Program-made: the position numbers and the translations under genes | UHGV virus genome: UHGV-0157652 | Direction: 5' to 3' (one strand) | Source: a virus | DNA: 10,326 nt | Notes under the pieces: model-generated | Seen by the model: only the letters and a program-made list of their open reading frames with translations | What the model was told of the DNA's origin: nothing | Database searches by the model: none | Part shown: piece by piece, positions 36 to 4,654 of the stretch | Layout of the letters: the number at the start of each line of letters is the position of its first letter | Position numbering within the stretch: position 1 is the first letter of the stretch

Positions 36-662
36 TTAGAGTTCGTATTGAACTCCTTTGACTACACCAATGATAAGGCAATTACCATTGATAGGGATGT
101 TGGGATACCGAGGATTTAATGGCACTAAAAACTTTTGAGGGCCATCGATGACTAATTTTTTTACTGTAGCTTCGTTTGTTCCATCAAGTCGAGCGATGAC
201 TATTTTTCCATGACGAGGTTCTGCATCTGGATCTACAATCACTGTTGCGCCTTCTGGTATTGTTGGGAGGCCATTAGGGTTAGTCATGGAGTCACCTTTA
301 ACCTCTAATGCAAATGAGTTATCACCAATCTTTAATGATGTATCTACCCACTTGTCCACTTCACTAAACACTTCTGCTGCCCTGCACTCAGTAAACTGCC
401 CAGCCTGAACCCACGATATTACAGGAACTCTGCGCATGTTTGTGACGAGTTTGCCTTCAAACTCAGCACCATAAAGAATGTAATCTATTGACGTATTGAA
501 GAACTTCGCTAATTTCGAAAGTGCCTCCCCACCAGGGGTATTGATGTCTTTCTCCCAGTACCCCACAGCAACGTCGCTTACTCCACAAAATTTACCCAAT
601 TCTTTCTGGGACGTTCCGGTAACTCTTCTCAGAGCTTTTATACGCTGACCAACCGTTTCCAT
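36..662 (-). CDS. cI: CI-type prophage repressor (HTH_XRE N-terminus + LexA/S24-like autopeptidase C-terminus)
   Basis: 208-aa ORF on the minus strand. N-terminal HTH-like segment (TSQKELGKFCGVSDVAVGYWEKD); C-terminal S24-type core with candidate Ala-Gly cleavage site (WVQAGQF), Ser in GDSM and Lys in VKKLV. Divergent from the cro-like gene across an operator-rich spacer. Confidence 0.85.
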   Translation of the reverse strand: METVGQRIKALRRVTGTSQKELGKFCGVSDVAVGYWEKDINTPGGEALSKLAKFFNTSIDYILYGAEFEGKLVTNMRRVPVISWVQAGQFTECRAAEVFSEVDKWVDTSLKIGDNSFALEVKGDSMTNPNGLPTIPEGATVIVDPDAEPRHGKIVIARLDGTNEATVKKLVIDGPQKFLVPLNPRYPNIPINGNCLIIGVVKGVQYEL

Positions 663-759
663 AGGAGCACCATTTCTTGAATTGCTAAGTAATCTTAGTT
701 TTTATTGACCAAAGATAGATTTGTAATTAGCATCTAATAAAACTTAGTTTGGAGGGCGT
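663..759. promoter_or_regulatory. Divergent immunity control region (OR-like operators, PR for cro, PRM for repressor)
   Basis: Inverted repeats CTAAGtaatCTTAG (685-698), ATTAGcatCTAAT (726-738) and AAACTtAGTTT (740-750). Candidate rightward promoter: -35 TTGACC (705-710), 17-bp spacer, -10 TAGCAT (728-733); SD GGAGGG (751-756) before cro ATG at 760. Lies between the divergent repressor and cro starts. Confidence 0.6.
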
Positions 760-960
760 ATGACAACTGACGATATCGAAAGCTACTTCGGCAGTATTGA
801 GAAAGTTGCTGCTTTTTTCGGCATAACAACTGAAGCCGTTTATCAGTGGCGAAACCGTCCGGGCCAGTTAATTCCAAAAGGACGTGCAGCAGAAGCTGCA
901 TATAGAACTTGCGGACGGTTGCCATTTAAACCTGAGCTTTATGAAAAATCTAATGGATAA
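760..960 (+). CDS. cro: Cro-like / YdaS-like small HTH transcriptional regulator
   Basis: 66-aa ORF with strong SD; HTH-like core (VAAFFGITTEAVYQWRNR); sits directly rightward of and divergent from the repressor, as cro does in lambdoid phages. Confidence 0.75.
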   Translation: MTTDDIESYFGSIEKVAAFFGITTEAVYQWRNRPGQLIPKGRAAEAAYRTCGRLPFKPELYEKSNG

Positions 961-1549
961 ATCGATTAACAGAAACCACAGAACGATGAGGCTAACCGTG
1001 GGTAAGCATCACTGGAAAGTAGAAAAACAGCCTGAGTGGTACGTGAAAGCTGTCAGAAAAACTATCGCAGCGTTGCCGGGTGGTTACGCTGAAGCAGCTG
1101 ACTGGCTGGATGTAACAGAAAACGCATTATTTAACCGCCTTCGTGCCGATGGCGATCAGATTTTCCCGCTGGGATGGGCAATGATTTTGCAACGTGCTGG
1201 TGGAACTCACTTCATTGCTGACGCTGTGGCGCAGTCTGCAAATGGCGTCTTTGTGTCTCTTCCTGACGTCGAGGATGTGGACAACGCCGATATTAACCAG
1301 CGCCTGCTGGAAGTCATTGAACAGATTGGCAGTTATTCCAGACAGATTCGTTCGGCAATCGAAGACGGTGTGGTGGAACCGCATGAGAAGACAGCAATTA
1401 ACGACGAGCTGTATCTCTCAATTTCGAAGCTGCAGGAGCATGCAGCACTGGTCTACAAAATCTTTTGCATTTCAGAAAGTAATGACGCCCGCGAGTGTGC
1501 AGCTCCGGGCGCCGTGGCGTGTCGTGACTGTGGAGAAACTAACGCATGA
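941..1549 (+). CDS. CII-like phage regulatory protein (start uncertain: in-frame candidates GTG 884, ATG 941, 953, 986)
   Basis: Long ORF immediately after cro; the segment [47 protein letters not shown] resembles, from memory, the HTH region of 186-CII-type (Phage_CP76-like) regulators. Stop TGA 1547-1549 overlaps the next ATG (ATGA). No database search run. Confidence 0.5.
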
Positions 1550-1884
1550 ACAGTTTAACAACACACTACCGTCGCTCGCAACTGATTGCGCTTCCTGTAC
1601 CGGGTGGAAAAGCGAAGGTGGAGTATTGCTATGCAGTTAATGTACCAGGTGACAGGGAAATTGTAACCCACAGCTTTGCTGAGTGGGCTGTGGGTGATTT
1701 CAACCGGCAGAAGGAGACAGTCCTTTGCGACAAGTTAACCGCTGGTTCAAAGATCACTACGGAGTGCCCGTCAGAGTCATTCGTTGGGAGCCGGAAACAC
1801 AACGAGTTATCTACCTCCGCGAAGGCTATGAGCATGAGTGCTTCAGCCCGCTCGAACAGTTTCGTCGTAAATTCAGGGAAATAG
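1546..1884 (+). CDS. Hypothetical protein (N-terminal ~60 aa look coding; C-terminal ~50 aa are Ser-rich low-complexity, possibly out of the true frame)
   Basis: ATG at 1546 is coupled to the preceding stop (ATGA). The translation downstream of ~1725 degenerates to [38 protein letters not shown], while a different frame is protein-like over the same DNA. Confidence 0.4.
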
Positions 1885-1904
1885 AGGTCGGTCATGAGCA
1901 CTAA
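1725..1904 (+). CDS. Alternative small ORF (59 aa, TTG start), or the frameshifted C-terminal part of the 1546 gene
   Basis: AAGGAG (1711-1716) lies 8 nt upstream of TTG 1725. Translation [59 protein letters not shown] is far more protein-like than the overlapping frame. Stop TAA 1902-1904 overlaps the O-like start (1894) by 11 nt. Absent from the ORF track because it lacks an ATG. Confidence 0.3.
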
Positions 1905-2835
1905 ATTAACCGGCTATGTATGGGATGGTTGCGCTGCATCAGGCATGAAATTATCCAGCGTGGCAATTATGGCCCGCCTGGCTGATTTCAGTAATGACGA
2001 AGGTGTGTGCTGGCCATCAATTGAAACTATTGCCCGTCAGATTGGCGCGGGGATGAGTACCGTCAGGACGGCTATCGCACGGCTGGAAGCAGAAGGCTGG
2101 TTAACGCGTAAGGCGCGTCGCCAGGGTAACCGCAATGCGTCGAATGTTTATCAGCTTAACGTTGCGAAGCTTCAGGCAGCGGCATTTTCTCAACTGTCAG
2201 ATTCTGACCCGTCAAAATCTGACGCATCAAAATCTGACCCGTCAAAATTTGATGCGTCGAAATCTGGCAAAAAAGCGGGTTTTCACCCGTCAGAATCTGG
2301 CGGGGATCCGTCAGTAAAATCAAAACATGATCCGTCAGATAAAAAACCTTCTCGTCCGGACGCTTCGCAACCGGACACGCAGACGGATGAACAGGATTTT
2401 TTAACTCGCCATCCTGATGCGGTTGTATTCAGCCCTAAAAAGCGCCAGTGGGGAACGCAGGATGATTTGACCTGCGCACAGTGGCTCTGGAAAAAAATCA
2501 TCGCCCTGTACGAGCAAGCCGCCGAATGTGACGGCGAGGTGGTTCGTCCCAAAGAACCGAACTGGACAGCCTGGGCAAACGAAATTCGCCTGATGTGTGT
2601 GCAGGATGGTCGTACTCACAAACAAATCTGCGAGATGTACAGCCGCGTCAGCCGCGATCCGTTCTGGTGCCGTAACGTGCTCAGCCCGTCGAAGTTGCGG
2701 GAAAAATGGGATGAGCTTTCCCTGCGCTTATCACCGTCCGTCAGCACGTACACCGAAAAACGCGAAGACCCGTACTTCAAATCCAGTTACGACAACGTGG
2801 ACTACAGCCAGATCCCGGCAGGATTCAGGGGGTGA
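1894..2835 (+). CDS. Replication initiator, O-like (N-terminal HTH DNA-binding domain, repeat-encoding linker, C-terminal domain)
   Basis: 313 aa; SD GAGGTCGG upstream. N-terminal region (SVAIMARLADFSNDEGVCWPSIETIARQIGAGMSTVRTAIARLEAEGWL) is typical of phage replication-initiator HTH domains. Internal tandem DNA repeats begin about 100 codons in, the same relative position as ori-lambda inside lambda O. Confidence 0.8.
   Translation: MSTKLTGYVWDGCAASGMKLSSVAIMARLADFSNDEGVCWPSIETIARQIGAGMSTVRTAIARLEAEGWLTRKARRQGNRNASNVYQLNVAKLQAAAFSQLSDSDPSKSDASKSDPSKFDASKSGKKAGFHPSESGGDPSVKSKHDPSDKKPSRPDASQPDTQTDEQDFLTRHPDAVVFSPKKRQWGTQDDLTCAQWLWKKIIALYEQAAECDGEVVRPKEPNWTAWANEIRLMCVQDGRTHKQICEMYSRVSRDPFWCRNVLSPSKLREKWDELSLRLSPSVSTYTEKREDPYFKSSYDNVDYSQIPAGFRG
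2196..2347. repeat. Iteron-like direct repeats (candidate replication origin) inside the O-like gene
   Basis: Five tandem 15-bp units at 2196, 2211, 2226, 2241 and 2256 (consensus about GTCAAAATCTGACCC), plus degenerate copies CCGTCAGAATCTGG (2288-2301), CCGTCAGTAAAATC (2309-2322), CCGTCAGATAAAAAAC (2332-2347), followed by a short AT-rich stretch near 2394-2405. The repeats are in frame and encode an SKSDx pentapeptide repeat. Confidence 0.6.
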
Positions 2836-2837
2836 TC

Positions 2838-3326
2838 ATGAGTCTTTTGAATGAAGTTCAGAAATTCATTGAAGCCCATCCGGGATGTACTTCCGGAGAC
2901 ATTGCGGATGCTTTTGCAGGTTACTCACGGCAGCGCGTTCTGCAGTCAGCAAGCAAGTTACGTCAGAGTGGGCGTGTGGCTCACCGTTGTGAAGGAGATA
3001 CACGCAGACATTTCCCGCGCCTGACTGAGAGAGCGCAGGAACCGGAACCACAACCAGTTCGAGAAACCAGACCTGTGCGCAATTTCTATGTCGGCACTAA
3101 CGATCCACGGGTGATTTTGTGCCTGACCCGCCAGGCTGAAGAACTGGAGTCCAGGGGCTTATACCGTCGTGCTGCAACCGTGTGGATGGCGGCATTCCGT
3201 GAAAGCCACTCCCAGCCAGAACGAAACAATTTTCTGGCGCGTCGTGAGCGGTGCTTACGGAAAAGCAGCAAGCGCGCTGCATCGGGTGAAGAGTGGTATC
3301 TGTCAGGGAATTACGTGGGGGCTTAA
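2838..3326 (+). CDS. PerC/Pch-like transcriptional regulator candidate with an N-terminal winged-helix-like domain
   Basis: ATG 2838 with SD AGGGGG 6 nt upstream (alternative GTG 2832, 2 nt after the O stop codon). C-terminal segment AEELESRGLYRRAATVWMAAFRESHSQPERNNFLARRERCLRK matches my recollection of the PerC-family core; not verified by search. Stop TAA 3324-3326 overlaps the next ATG (TAATG). Confidence 0.5.
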   Translation: MSLLNEVQKFIEAHPGCTSGDIADAFAGYSRQRVLQSASKLRQSGRVAHRCEGDTRRHFPRLTERAQEPEPQPVRETRPVRNFYVGTNDPRVILCLTRQAEELESRGLYRRAATVWMAAFRESHSQPERNNFLARRERCLRKSSKRAASGEEWYLSGNYVGA

Positions 3327-3979
3327 TGAGTAATAAATATTGCCAGGCGCTGGTGGAACTGCGGAACAAACCAGCCCATGAACTGAAGGAAGTGGGCGAT
3401 CAGTGGCGCACGCCGGACAACATTTTCTGGGGAATTAACACCCTGTTTGGCCCGTTTGTTCTGGATCTGTTTACTGACGGTGATAACGCCAAATGTGCCG
3501 CGTATTACACGGCGGAAGATAACGCGCTGGCGCATGACTGGTCAGAACGTCTTGCGGAGCTTAAAGGTGCTGCCTTTGGTAATCCCCCATACAGCCGCGC
3601 CAGTCAGCATGAGGGGCAATACATCACCGGCATGCGTTACATCATGAAACATGCCGGTGCCATGCGTGATAAGGGCGGGCGCTATGTTTTCCTGATCAAA
3701 GCTGCCACCAGCGAAGTGTGGTGGCCGGAAGATGCGGACCATATTGCTTTTATTCGCGGGCGTATTGGTTTTGAACTGCCTGCCTGGTTTATCCCGAAGG
3801 ATGAGAAGCAGGTGCCGACAGGCGCTTTCTTCGCTGGTGCTATTGCTGTTTTCGACAAGACCTGGAAGGGACCGGCAATCAGCTACATCGGGCGCGATGA
3901 ACTTGAGGCATGTGGTGAAGCCTTTTTGGTGCAGGTTCGCCAGCAGGCGGAAAAACTGGTCAGGGAGATGGCGGCATGA
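3326..3979 (+). CDS. Phage Dam-type N6-adenine DNA methyltransferase (orphan)
   Basis: 217 aa from ATG 3326, translationally coupled to the upstream gene. Carries the catalytic NPPY motif (AFGNPPYS) and an N-terminal WRTP segment that I recall as typical of phage Dam-family proteins. No adjacent endonuclease gene. Confidence 0.8.
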   Translation: MSNKYCQALVELRNKPAHELKEVGDQWRTPDNIFWGINTLFGPFVLDLFTDGDNAKCAAYYTAEDNALAHDWSERLAELKGAAFGNPPYSRASQHEGQYITGMRYIMKHAGAMRDKGGRYVFLIKAATSEVWWPEDADHIAFIRGRIGFELPAWFIPKDEKQVPTGAFFAGAIAVFDKTWKGPAISYIGRDELEACGEAFLVQVRQQAEKLVREMAA

Positions 3980-4302
3980 CGACGTTAACTCAATGCCAGC
4001 AGCAGGTGCTGGATATGCTGATTTCTTACCAGAAAGAGCGTGGCTTTCCGCCAACCAATCAGGAGGTGGCAACCATGCTGGGATACCGTTCAGTGAATGC
4101 AGCGGTAGAGCATCTTCGTGCACTGGAGAAAAAAGGCGTCATCACGATAAAGCGTGGCGTGGCCCGGGGGATAACGCTTCATACCGCGGTGAAGGACGAC
4201 GACAGCGAGGCGGTCGGGATTATCCGCGCACTGCTTGCCGGTGAGGAAAACGCCAGGCTGCGTGCAGCCCACTGGTTACATGAGAGAGGCCTGAAAGTAT
4301 GA
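3976..4302 (+). CDS. LexA-type N-terminal DNA-binding domain protein (no peptidase domain)
   Basis: 108 aa; LTQCQQQVLDMLISYQKERGFPPTNQEVATMLGYRSVNAAVEHLRALEKKGVITIKRGVARGITL follows the LexA DNA-binding winged-helix pattern. ATGA overlap with the methyltransferase stop and with the next gene start. Confidence 0.8.
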   Translation: MTTLTQCQQQVLDMLISYQKERGFPPTNQEVATMLGYRSVNAAVEHLRALEKKGVITIKRGVARGITLHTAVKDDDSEAVGIIRALLAGEENARLRAAHWLHERGLKV

Positions 4303-4654
4303 AGCTGATCTTGCCTTTCCCGCCCAGCGTGAACACGTACTGGCGACACCCCAACAAAGGGGCGTTTGTAGGTAAAAGCCTGATAAGCGAGGCGGGGCGA
4401 AAATTCCAGAGCGCGGCGTGCGCAGCAATAGTTGAGCAGTTACGTCGTCTGCCGAAACCAACGTCGGCACCTGCTTCAGTGGAGATCGTGTTGTTTCCTC
4501 CGGATAACAGGATCCGCGAACAACAACAACGGGGGTGTGGGAAGACGACAGCCAGGTGAAAAGAATGCTGGTGGAGTGGGGGCCGGTTATCCCGGAAGGG
4601 AAGGTCGAGATCACTATCAGTAAGTACGAGAAAACGGCGGGTGCAGCCGCCTGA
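4299..4654 (+). pseudogene. rusA: rusA (Holliday-junction resolvase), disrupted by an internal deletion plus frameshift
   Basis: Frame 0 (4299-4559) gives a RusA-like N-terminus (LPFPPSVNTYWRH ... VEIVLFPPDNR) then runs into a stop. The RusA-like C-terminus (GVWEDDSQVKRMLVEWGPVIPEGKVEITISKYEKT) is in another frame (about 4535-4654). The segment expected between them, which in E. coli RusA as I recall it holds the catalytic RRDLDN aspartates, is absent. Confidence 0.55.

Follow-up and report, generated by a model that had tools for sequence, protein, structure and literature searches.

Which protein does a lambda-like temperate phage encode directly behind its replication initiator when no P gene is present, and does a PerC-family label on that protein point to an influence on the virulence genes of the host? 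Both questions are raised by the virus genome UHGV-0157652, of which a stretch of 10,326 nt (hereafter the window, with positions counted from its first nucleotide) was analysed computationally. A first-pass annotation, made from the letters of the window without database searches, had singled out a 162-aa open reading frame (ORF) in the slot where lambda encodes its helicase loader P, and had proposed it as a PerC/Pch-like prophage regulator with potential cross-talk to host virulence gene expression. The ORF corresponds to the known prophage gene yfdN. The reading that we favour, and regard as fairly probable, is that YfdN is a dispensable, early-expressed modulator of the DNA-binding type, acting on phage or host transcription or on the nucleoid, and that it is neither a helicase loader nor a dedicated activator of LEE, the locus of enterocyte effacement.

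Identity and distribution of yfdN

The reading frame runs on the + strand from the ATG at 2838 to the TAA at 3324-3326 and encodes 162 aa. An alternative listed start, GTG 2832, lies two codons upstream, but ATG 2838 appears to be the better start because a GGGGG run is found approximately 6 nt upstream of it and because residues M1-S2-L3 are invariant among the close homologues. The predicted product is 98% identical (164 aa) to YfdN of Escherichia coli K-12 (b2357, UniProt P76510), which is encoded by the cryptic prophage CPS-53/KpLE1, and judged by this identity the ORF is yfdN, the same gene as K-12 b2357. The phage protein family phrog_1324 ('transcriptional activator') matches residues 1-161, and therefore the full length of the protein, with E = 1.7e-78, and identical DNA carries the RefSeq label 'yfdN: PerC family transcriptional regulator'.

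The gene is far from rare. Of 5426 complete E. coli genomes searched by megablast, 2668, K-12 included, contain the gene (489 nt), which is usually annotated both as yfdN and as a PerC family transcriptional regulator. Among phages it is carried by SfII, SfIV, SfV, mEp460, Ayreon, Kati and ST64B (Sb43), as well as by Stx2c phages and some Stx2a phages, the carriers including Stx2c and Stx2a phages of E. coli O157:H7. The protein database holds hundreds of clusters with the title "PerC family transcriptional regulator", from Escherichia, Salmonella, Citrobacter, Hafnia and Leclercia, and over its full length the window shares 99.7% identity with prophages carried by E. coli of pig, human and sediment origin. 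The ORF is no new candidate regulator: the databases already record the gene, how widely it is distributed and the family to which it is assigned, yfdN being annotated as a member of the PerC family in thousands of genomes. We regard yfdN as a conserved accessory gene in one lineage of lambda-like temperate phages of Enterobacterales.

The setting of the gene in the window resembles that in K-12, where yfdN is flanked by an O fragment (yfdO) upstream and by a Dam fragment (yfdM) downstream. Whereas CPS-53 is a remnant, the window apparently contains a far fuller early region, with cI, cro, cII, a full-length O, dam, Q and lysis genes.

Domain architecture of YfdN

An AlphaFold2 model built from 18 homologues, with a mean pLDDT (predicted local distance difference test) of 77.8, divides YfdN into two folded domains, a linker and a C-terminal tail (Table 1). 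The N-terminal domain is modelled at pLDDT 85-92, with helices at residues 3-13, 19-25 and 31-44 and strands at residues 47-52 and 55-60. Foldseek aligned this domain with the winged helices of MarR (MepR), ArsR, BlaI and PerR proteins, at a root-mean-square deviation (rmsd) of approximately 2-2.6 Å over 58-69 columns and a probability of approximately 1.0; none of these matches reached E <= 0.001, and hence they are evidence at the level of the fold. Profile comparisons point the same way, the family profile matching the BlaI repressor (E = 1.4e-4) and also MarR proteins in the PDB, and YfdN matching phrog_1687 (MarR) at 8e-5. The N-terminal winged-helix-like extension suspected by the first-pass annotation is, as far as the model, Foldseek and the PDB profile matches agree, real.

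The linker differs in both length and sequence from one family member to the next. It leads into a second domain for which the model confidently predicts three helices, at residues 90-105, 109-122 and 126-149; a PDB profile search returned no solved structure matching this PerC-like helical domain. Cys139, which lies in the third of these helices, is nearly invariant, being conserved in more than 90% of relatives. The tail that follows is predicted to be disordered but is nonetheless conserved: in YfdN it ends in ..WYLSGNYVGA, the family consensus being [WC]-x-L-[AS]-G-x-[YF]-x-G. Residues L155, G157, Y159, V160 and G161 are invariant among the close homologues, and G157 remains more than 90% conserved in relatives with 23-48% identity.

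The same two-domain build was recovered by an exhaustive HMMER search in approximately 30 clusters (at the 50% identity level) of proteins of 138-165 aa with 23-48% identity. YfdN shares with the phrog_1324 family the full-length combination of a winged helix and a PerC-like domain. Going by these homologues, the two-domain YfdN type is a distinct subfamily rather than a one-off fusion.

Relationship to the PerC, Pch and ANR proteins

The first-pass annotation had recognized a PerC-like segment near the C-terminus, LESRGLYRRAATVW...ARRERCLRK. This segment occupies residues 103-142 and lies inside a match to the Pfam PerC family (PF06069) at residues 98-149, which scored 36.1 bits against a curated cut-off of 22.6 (E = 7.7e-09), far more than chance would give. 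The hidden Markov model (HMM) search of the family therefore bears the recognition out, and PerC was the only Pfam family to match YfdN at E <= 0.1. In a BLASTP comparison, 17 of 46 residues (37%) were identical between residues 98-143 of YfdN and residues 6-51 of PerC from enteropathogenic E. coli (EPEC). An alignment that took in PerC and one partial PchABC-type sequence showed a core motif, LE.xG.YRRAA..W ... RR..C, common to YfdN, EPEC PerC and PchABC. On the strength of profile and motif, the assignment of YfdN to the PerC family holds.

The kinship is nevertheless partial. The part of YfdN that is shared with PerC and PchABC is their N-terminal helical core, with the motif KAE.LE.xG.YRRAA..W ... 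RR..C, and of the 90 positions of the PerC profile no more than positions 5-56 are matched. Neither the profile match nor the alignment revealed in YfdN a counterpart of the C-terminal half of PerC and PchABC; conversely, the conserved tail of YfdN is missing from PerC and PchABC, which have a C-terminal half of their own. The proteins also differ in build: PerC is a single domain of 89 aa and the PchABC genes, at 315 bp, encode approximately 104 aa, whereas YfdN combines winged helix, linker and helical domain in 162 aa and falls outside the size range of these small proteins (~90-105 aa).

The segment matched by PerC appears to resemble the small ANR regulators equally well. The ANR proteins have been described as small, stand-alone three-helix regulators of 39-80 aa with a highly conserved Cys, which damp AraC-type activators, and their genes as usually adjoining those of AraC-type activators (PMC4038620). 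YfdN shares the three α-helices and the conserved cysteine, and Cys139 may parallel the highly conserved Cys of the ANR proteins. The NCBIfam ANR model (NF033650) matched residues 96-142 with 23.6 bits (E = 3.3e-5), below its cut-off of 32, and when the modelled C-terminal domain is superposed on phage proteins of 60 aa that bear the name ANR family regulator, the rmsd is 0.5-0.6 Å over 54-56 residues. What sets YfdN apart from the ANR family is that it is a 162-aa winged-helix fusion, well above the 39-80 aa of the stand-alone proteins, and is encoded in a phage replication/nin-type region.

Other PerC-family proteins on mobile elements offer a further comparison. The PerC-like proteins of phage-inducible chromosomal islands (PICIs), namely EcCIMP1_025 and the copies of EcCIEDL933 and EcCICFT073, resemble YfdN, as do PchD and PchE, in belonging to the PerC family and in residing on mobile elements, and are inactive, weak or repressing at LEE; they differ in being short proteins from other contexts (PICIs, or Sp7 and S-loop 72 of O157 Sakai) that are not of the two-domain YfdN type. 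The idea that YfdN is itself PchE or PchD was rejected, since in O157 Sakai these are located on other elements, the Sp7 prophage and S-loop 72; the source that discusses PchD, PchE and yfdN treats yfdN as a separate K-12 homologue (PMC5931665).

Probable expression, position and natural loss of yfdN

The ORF begins directly after the initiator gene, as had been noted. The initiator ends with TGA at 2833-2835 and is separated from the yfdN start by a gap of 2 nt (TGAtcATG), and the two genes are probably translationally coupled. At its other end, the stop codon of yfdN overlaps the ATG of the dam gene (3326) as TAATG, so that the coupling to replication and methyltransferase genes proposed by the first-pass annotation is visible at both junctions. 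A consensus scan of positions 600-4400 found a single promoter-like site on the + strand, at 705-733, and no terminator-like site on that strand. Transcription of yfdN most probably starts at pR and runs through an early operon of the order cro-cII-orf-O-yfdN-dam-... Because this pR-like site is the only promoter-like site that precedes yfdN and no + strand terminator-like site was found, YfdN is probably an early lytic product that is kept silent by the prophage repressor.

The place of the gene in the operon is strictly kept. In eight independently sampled neighbourhoods, YfdN-like genes (~22-36% identity) lie directly 3′ of the initiator gene, which they often overlap by ATGA, while the gene that follows them differs, being of the MT-A70, Dam, D12-class methylase or ParB-like type. 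The position matches that of P in lambda, as had been claimed, but the correspondence with the P slot is a positional coincidence. In Hafnia phage Meifeng (L014), a lambda-type O is followed by P (PF06992, 224 bits) and only then by a YfdN-family gene, whose product aligns over both domains; at locus L023, Phage_rep_O is followed by a DnaB helicase and then by a YfdN-like gene with two winged helices. Because YfdN-like genes trail both O+P and O+DnaB modules, the true position of the family is that of the first gene after the replication module, which coincides with the position of P wherever the module contains no loader gene. In lambda, this first-after-module position is occupied by ren, the positional equivalent of yfdN, whereas the likeness to P is one of position only, the sequences being unlike. 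The Meifeng protein (L014, 4676-5167) also shows a weak match to DUF1627 (PF07789, E = 0.001), below the cut-off. This weak match hints that the theme of a winged-helix protein encoded after the replication genes may extend to other lambdoid phages.

Related phages also do without the gene. In Citrobacter phage phiNP and Klebsiella phage 1 LV-2017, related initiators are followed directly by Dam, and neither YfdN nor a loader is encoded in the examined stretch. Phage cdtI (NC_009514; L017, 3501-3590) has suffered a clean, in-frame deletion of 396 nt that removed yfdN codons 27-158 and left a 30-codon remnant before dam; this phage is reportedly "an inducible lambdoid prophage". In the O157 Stx2a prophage Stx2a_WGPS2 (L015, 3599-5400), yfdN is split by IS629. 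Judging from such natural losses and disruptions in related phages, yfdN is dispensable.

Proposed mode of action

A dispensable, early-expressed modulator with a DNA-binding fold would draw these observations together. We propose that the winged helix would tether YfdN to DNA, and that the flexible linker would join it to the three-helix PerC/ANR-like domain, whose helices would offer a protein-interaction surface able to modulate either H-NS-type silencing or a transcription factor. YfdN would be made only upon infection or upon inactivation of the repressor, and would act in early lytic growth, its function being accessory rather than essential. The protein contacts are proposed because the precedents for the helical domain, that is Pch, the ANR proteins and the PICI PerC-like proteins, all modulate silencing or activators. 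Pch, for example, lifts the silencing of LEE1 by H-NS, StpA, Hha and YdgT and displaces H-NS (PMC4764244).

Several points weigh against this proposal. DNA binding by the winged helix is deduced from the modelled fold, and since YfdN matches half of the PerC profile, carrying the Pch mechanism over to it would be an extrapolation. The conserved tail, predicted to be disordered, is not explained by a modulator of transcription. That yfdN strictly adjoins the replication module would be equally in keeping with a non-essential role linked to replication. Lastly, a literature search gave no experiment on YfdN, the sole use found being the precautionary deletion of yfdN before ler-lacZ assays (PMC5931665); the remaining mentions of the gene are incidental, and come from a screen in which genes were overexpressed and glycogen accumulation was scored, from a nitric oxide transcriptome and from a predicted interactome.

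Alternative explanations

The alternative that survives best, which we nevertheless think unlikely, is that YfdN is a negative regulator of the ANR type, the helical domain of which binds and inactivates an AraC-type activator or H-NS and so brings about repression. Binding of H-NS by ANR proteins has also been reported. The ANR HMM match at residues 96-142, the near-exact superposition of the C-terminal domain on the 60-aa phage ANR proteins, and the agreement of three helices and a conserved Cys with the published description of the family (PMC4038620) all speak for this explanation, as does a proteome-wide interaction prediction that places YfdN within a cluster of 'negative regulation of transcription'. 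The PICI PerC-like protein, moreover, represses LEE1 and is suspected by its authors of ANR-like behaviour (PMC11773190). However, the ANR score stays under its curated cut-off while the PerC score exceeds its own, the ANR proteins are stand-alone and lack a winged helix, and neither the ORF list nor the Pfam scan of the window contained a gene for an AraC-type partner.

We consider it very improbable that YfdN is a Pch-like activator that turns on ler and LEE1 in attaching-and-effacing E. coli, the possibility behind the virulence cross-talk that had originally been envisaged. The idea gains from the PerC-family membership of YfdN, from the core motif that it has in common with PerC and PchABC, and from the presence of yfdN in Stx phages of O157:H7. 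Uhlich et al. named yfdN as the K-12 homologue of PerC and, guarding against interference, removed it from K-12 before their tests of Pch proteins on a ler-lacZ fusion, in which YfdN itself was never assayed (PMC5931665). Among the PerC homologues, activation of ler has been shown for PerC and PchABC only; others are inactive (PchD, PchE and PerC2/3) or, like the PICI copy, repress LEE1.

The distribution and the make-up of YfdN argue against such a role as well. About half of the complete E. coli genomes, that of K-12 among them, contain the gene, as do phages of Shigella and Salmonella, and the K-12, Shigella and Salmonella hosts are not known to carry LEE. YfdN is without the C-terminal half of PerC and Pch. 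Its gene has no separate promoter-like site and belongs to the pR operon, which the repressor controls, so that the protein would be produced chiefly by cells already on the way to lysis. A dedicated LEE role for YfdN is unlikely, while a side effect on LEE in induced cells of enterohaemorrhagic E. coli (EHEC) is conceivable.

Scarcely probable at all is the suggestion that YfdN is a functional substitute for lambda P, that is a helicase-loading or replication accessory partner of the O-like initiator. The C-terminal domain of lambda O is the part that binds P, and residues 166-277 of the initiator are 39% identical to it; the initiator thus has a lambda O-like C-domain, although the window contains no P gene. 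The position of yfdN and its probable translational coupling to this initiator would suit such a partner, as would the finding that neither the window nor any of six early operons with sufficient sequence (L002, L004, L006, L007, L009 and L022) contains a P, DnaC or DnaB gene, and the retention of the post-initiator position down to ~22-36% identity while the downstream gene changes.

The suggestion was rejected on the evidence of the O+P and O+DnaB modules that carry a YfdN-like gene in addition, of the absence of the gene from phiNP and LV-2017, and of the deletion in cdtI. A gene filling the slot of the loader would be expected where the loader is missing, but YfdN-like genes stand alongside P (L014) and DnaB (L023) and are missing or deleted beside the loader-less initiators of L010, L011 and L017. 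Identical YfdN proteins also occur behind two initiators with only 33% mutual identity, so that the two do not co-vary. Finally, a Pfam scan detected in YfdN no similarity to P, DnaC or DnaB, that is to PF06992 or to families of the DnaC/IstB or DnaB type, whereas the P protein of Meifeng scored 224 bits with the same library.

The initiator itself ends in a conserved tail, ..(E)DPxFKsSY.nVDYsqIP.GFR[GS], encoded by its last 24 codons (window 2761-2832). The same tail is present in L002, L004, L006, L007, L010, L011, L017, L018 and L020, on initiators with at least three types of N-domain and three types of C-domain. All the replication modules in which it was seen lack a P, DnaC or DnaB gene over the examined sequence, and it is absent from the four initiators that precede a loader or helicase gene, those of lambda, Meifeng, phiP27 and L023. 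This tail might be a peptide that recruits a host factor. The tail of YfdN is loosely similar to the ..AGFRG end of the initiator. The idea that YfdN docks onto the initiator tail was rejected, since L010, L011 and L017 have the tail but no YfdN, and L014, L022 and L023 have YfdN-like genes but no such tail.

A role of YfdN not as a transcription factor but as a non-essential modulator of loader-independent phage replication, in which its tail and that of the initiator (..DY..P..GFR[GS]) might dock onto the same host replication factor, would tie the PerC/ANR fold to replication control and would suit the adjacency of yfdN to the replication genes, but is just as improbable as the loader substitute, the two tails occurring independently of one another.

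Neighbouring features of the window

The coordinates of yfdN, of the parts of its product and of the features discussed with it are collected in Table 1. The iteron array lies within the initiator gene, in a low-complexity stretch that encodes DPSKSDASKS. Units of the GTCAAAATCTGAC type are partly palindromic, and beside the array there are further repeats of the GATCCGTCAGA type as well as inverted repeats. The array is the probable replication origin of the phage; in lambda, the iterons of ori are likewise situated within O.

Table 1. Positions in the window of yfdN, the predicted parts of YfdN and associated features
Feature	Position	Strand	Basis
pR-like promoter 5′ of cro	705..733	+	Consensus scan, pattern match only
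O-like replication initiator, 313 aa	1894..2835	+	Pfam HTH_36 at N-terminus; phrog_391 'replication initiation O-like', 1.2e-135
Iteron array, 15-nt period, ..GTCAAAATCTGAC..	2182..2343	.	6 copies at 15-nt spacing; inside O-like gene
yfdN coding sequence (162 aa + stop), two-domain PerC-family protein	2838..3326	+	ORF list, sequence, K-12 identity, phrog_1324, RefSeq name
Predicted winged-helix domain, residues 1-60 (three helices and β-hairpin wing)	2838..3017	+	AlphaFold2, Foldseek, PDB profile matches
Variable, mostly disordered linker, residues 61-89	3018..3104	+	pLDDT <50 at residues 63-82
Predicted PerC/ANR-like three-helix domain, residues 90-149	3105..3284	+	Pfam PerC match at residues 98-149 (nt 3129-3284)
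C-terminal tail ..EEWYLSGNYVGA	3285..3323	+	pLDDT <50 at residues 149-162; predicted disordered, conserved
Phage N6-adenine (Dam) methyltransferase	3326..3979	+	Pfam Dam PF05869, 3.2e-45; TIGR01712, 6.1e-76

Several other genes of the window were recorded as side observations. Between cII and the initiator gene there is a 112-aa ORF (1546-1884) that matched no Pfam family; in SfII, L005, L006 and L007 this position is taken by ORFs of about the same size, and a DUF4222 protein is found there in other relatives. Downstream of dam, a 108-aa protein (3976-4302) consists of a LexA-type DNA-binding domain alone (PF01726, 2.9e-19), without the S24 peptidase domain, and its gene is kept 3′ of dam in many relatives; such a protein could bind SOS boxes without being cleavable. 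The rusA gene (4299-4559) is a pseudogene that, compared with the copy of an Stx2c phage, has a 34-nt deletion near 4519-4530; its frame shifts past ..PPDNRIR, leaving 86 aa instead of 129. A 350-aa N6/N4 DNA methylase (PF01555; 7829-8881) is the second methyltransferase besides Dam within 10 kb. Its gene is flanked by that of the Q antiterminator and by the lysis genes, in the late-operon position that in Stx phages is the site of stx.

Implications

For the interpretation of prophage genomes, the result is a corrective one: a PerC-family label on a prophage gene should not be taken as a sign of potential LEE activation. Of PerC, the subfamily to which YfdN belongs retains no more than the ANR-like half; it occurs in half of the complete E. 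coli genomes and is encoded in an operon of early lytic growth. YfdN is a very common E. coli prophage protein that has a fixed place after the replication module, and it is probably a modulator that its phages can afford to lose.

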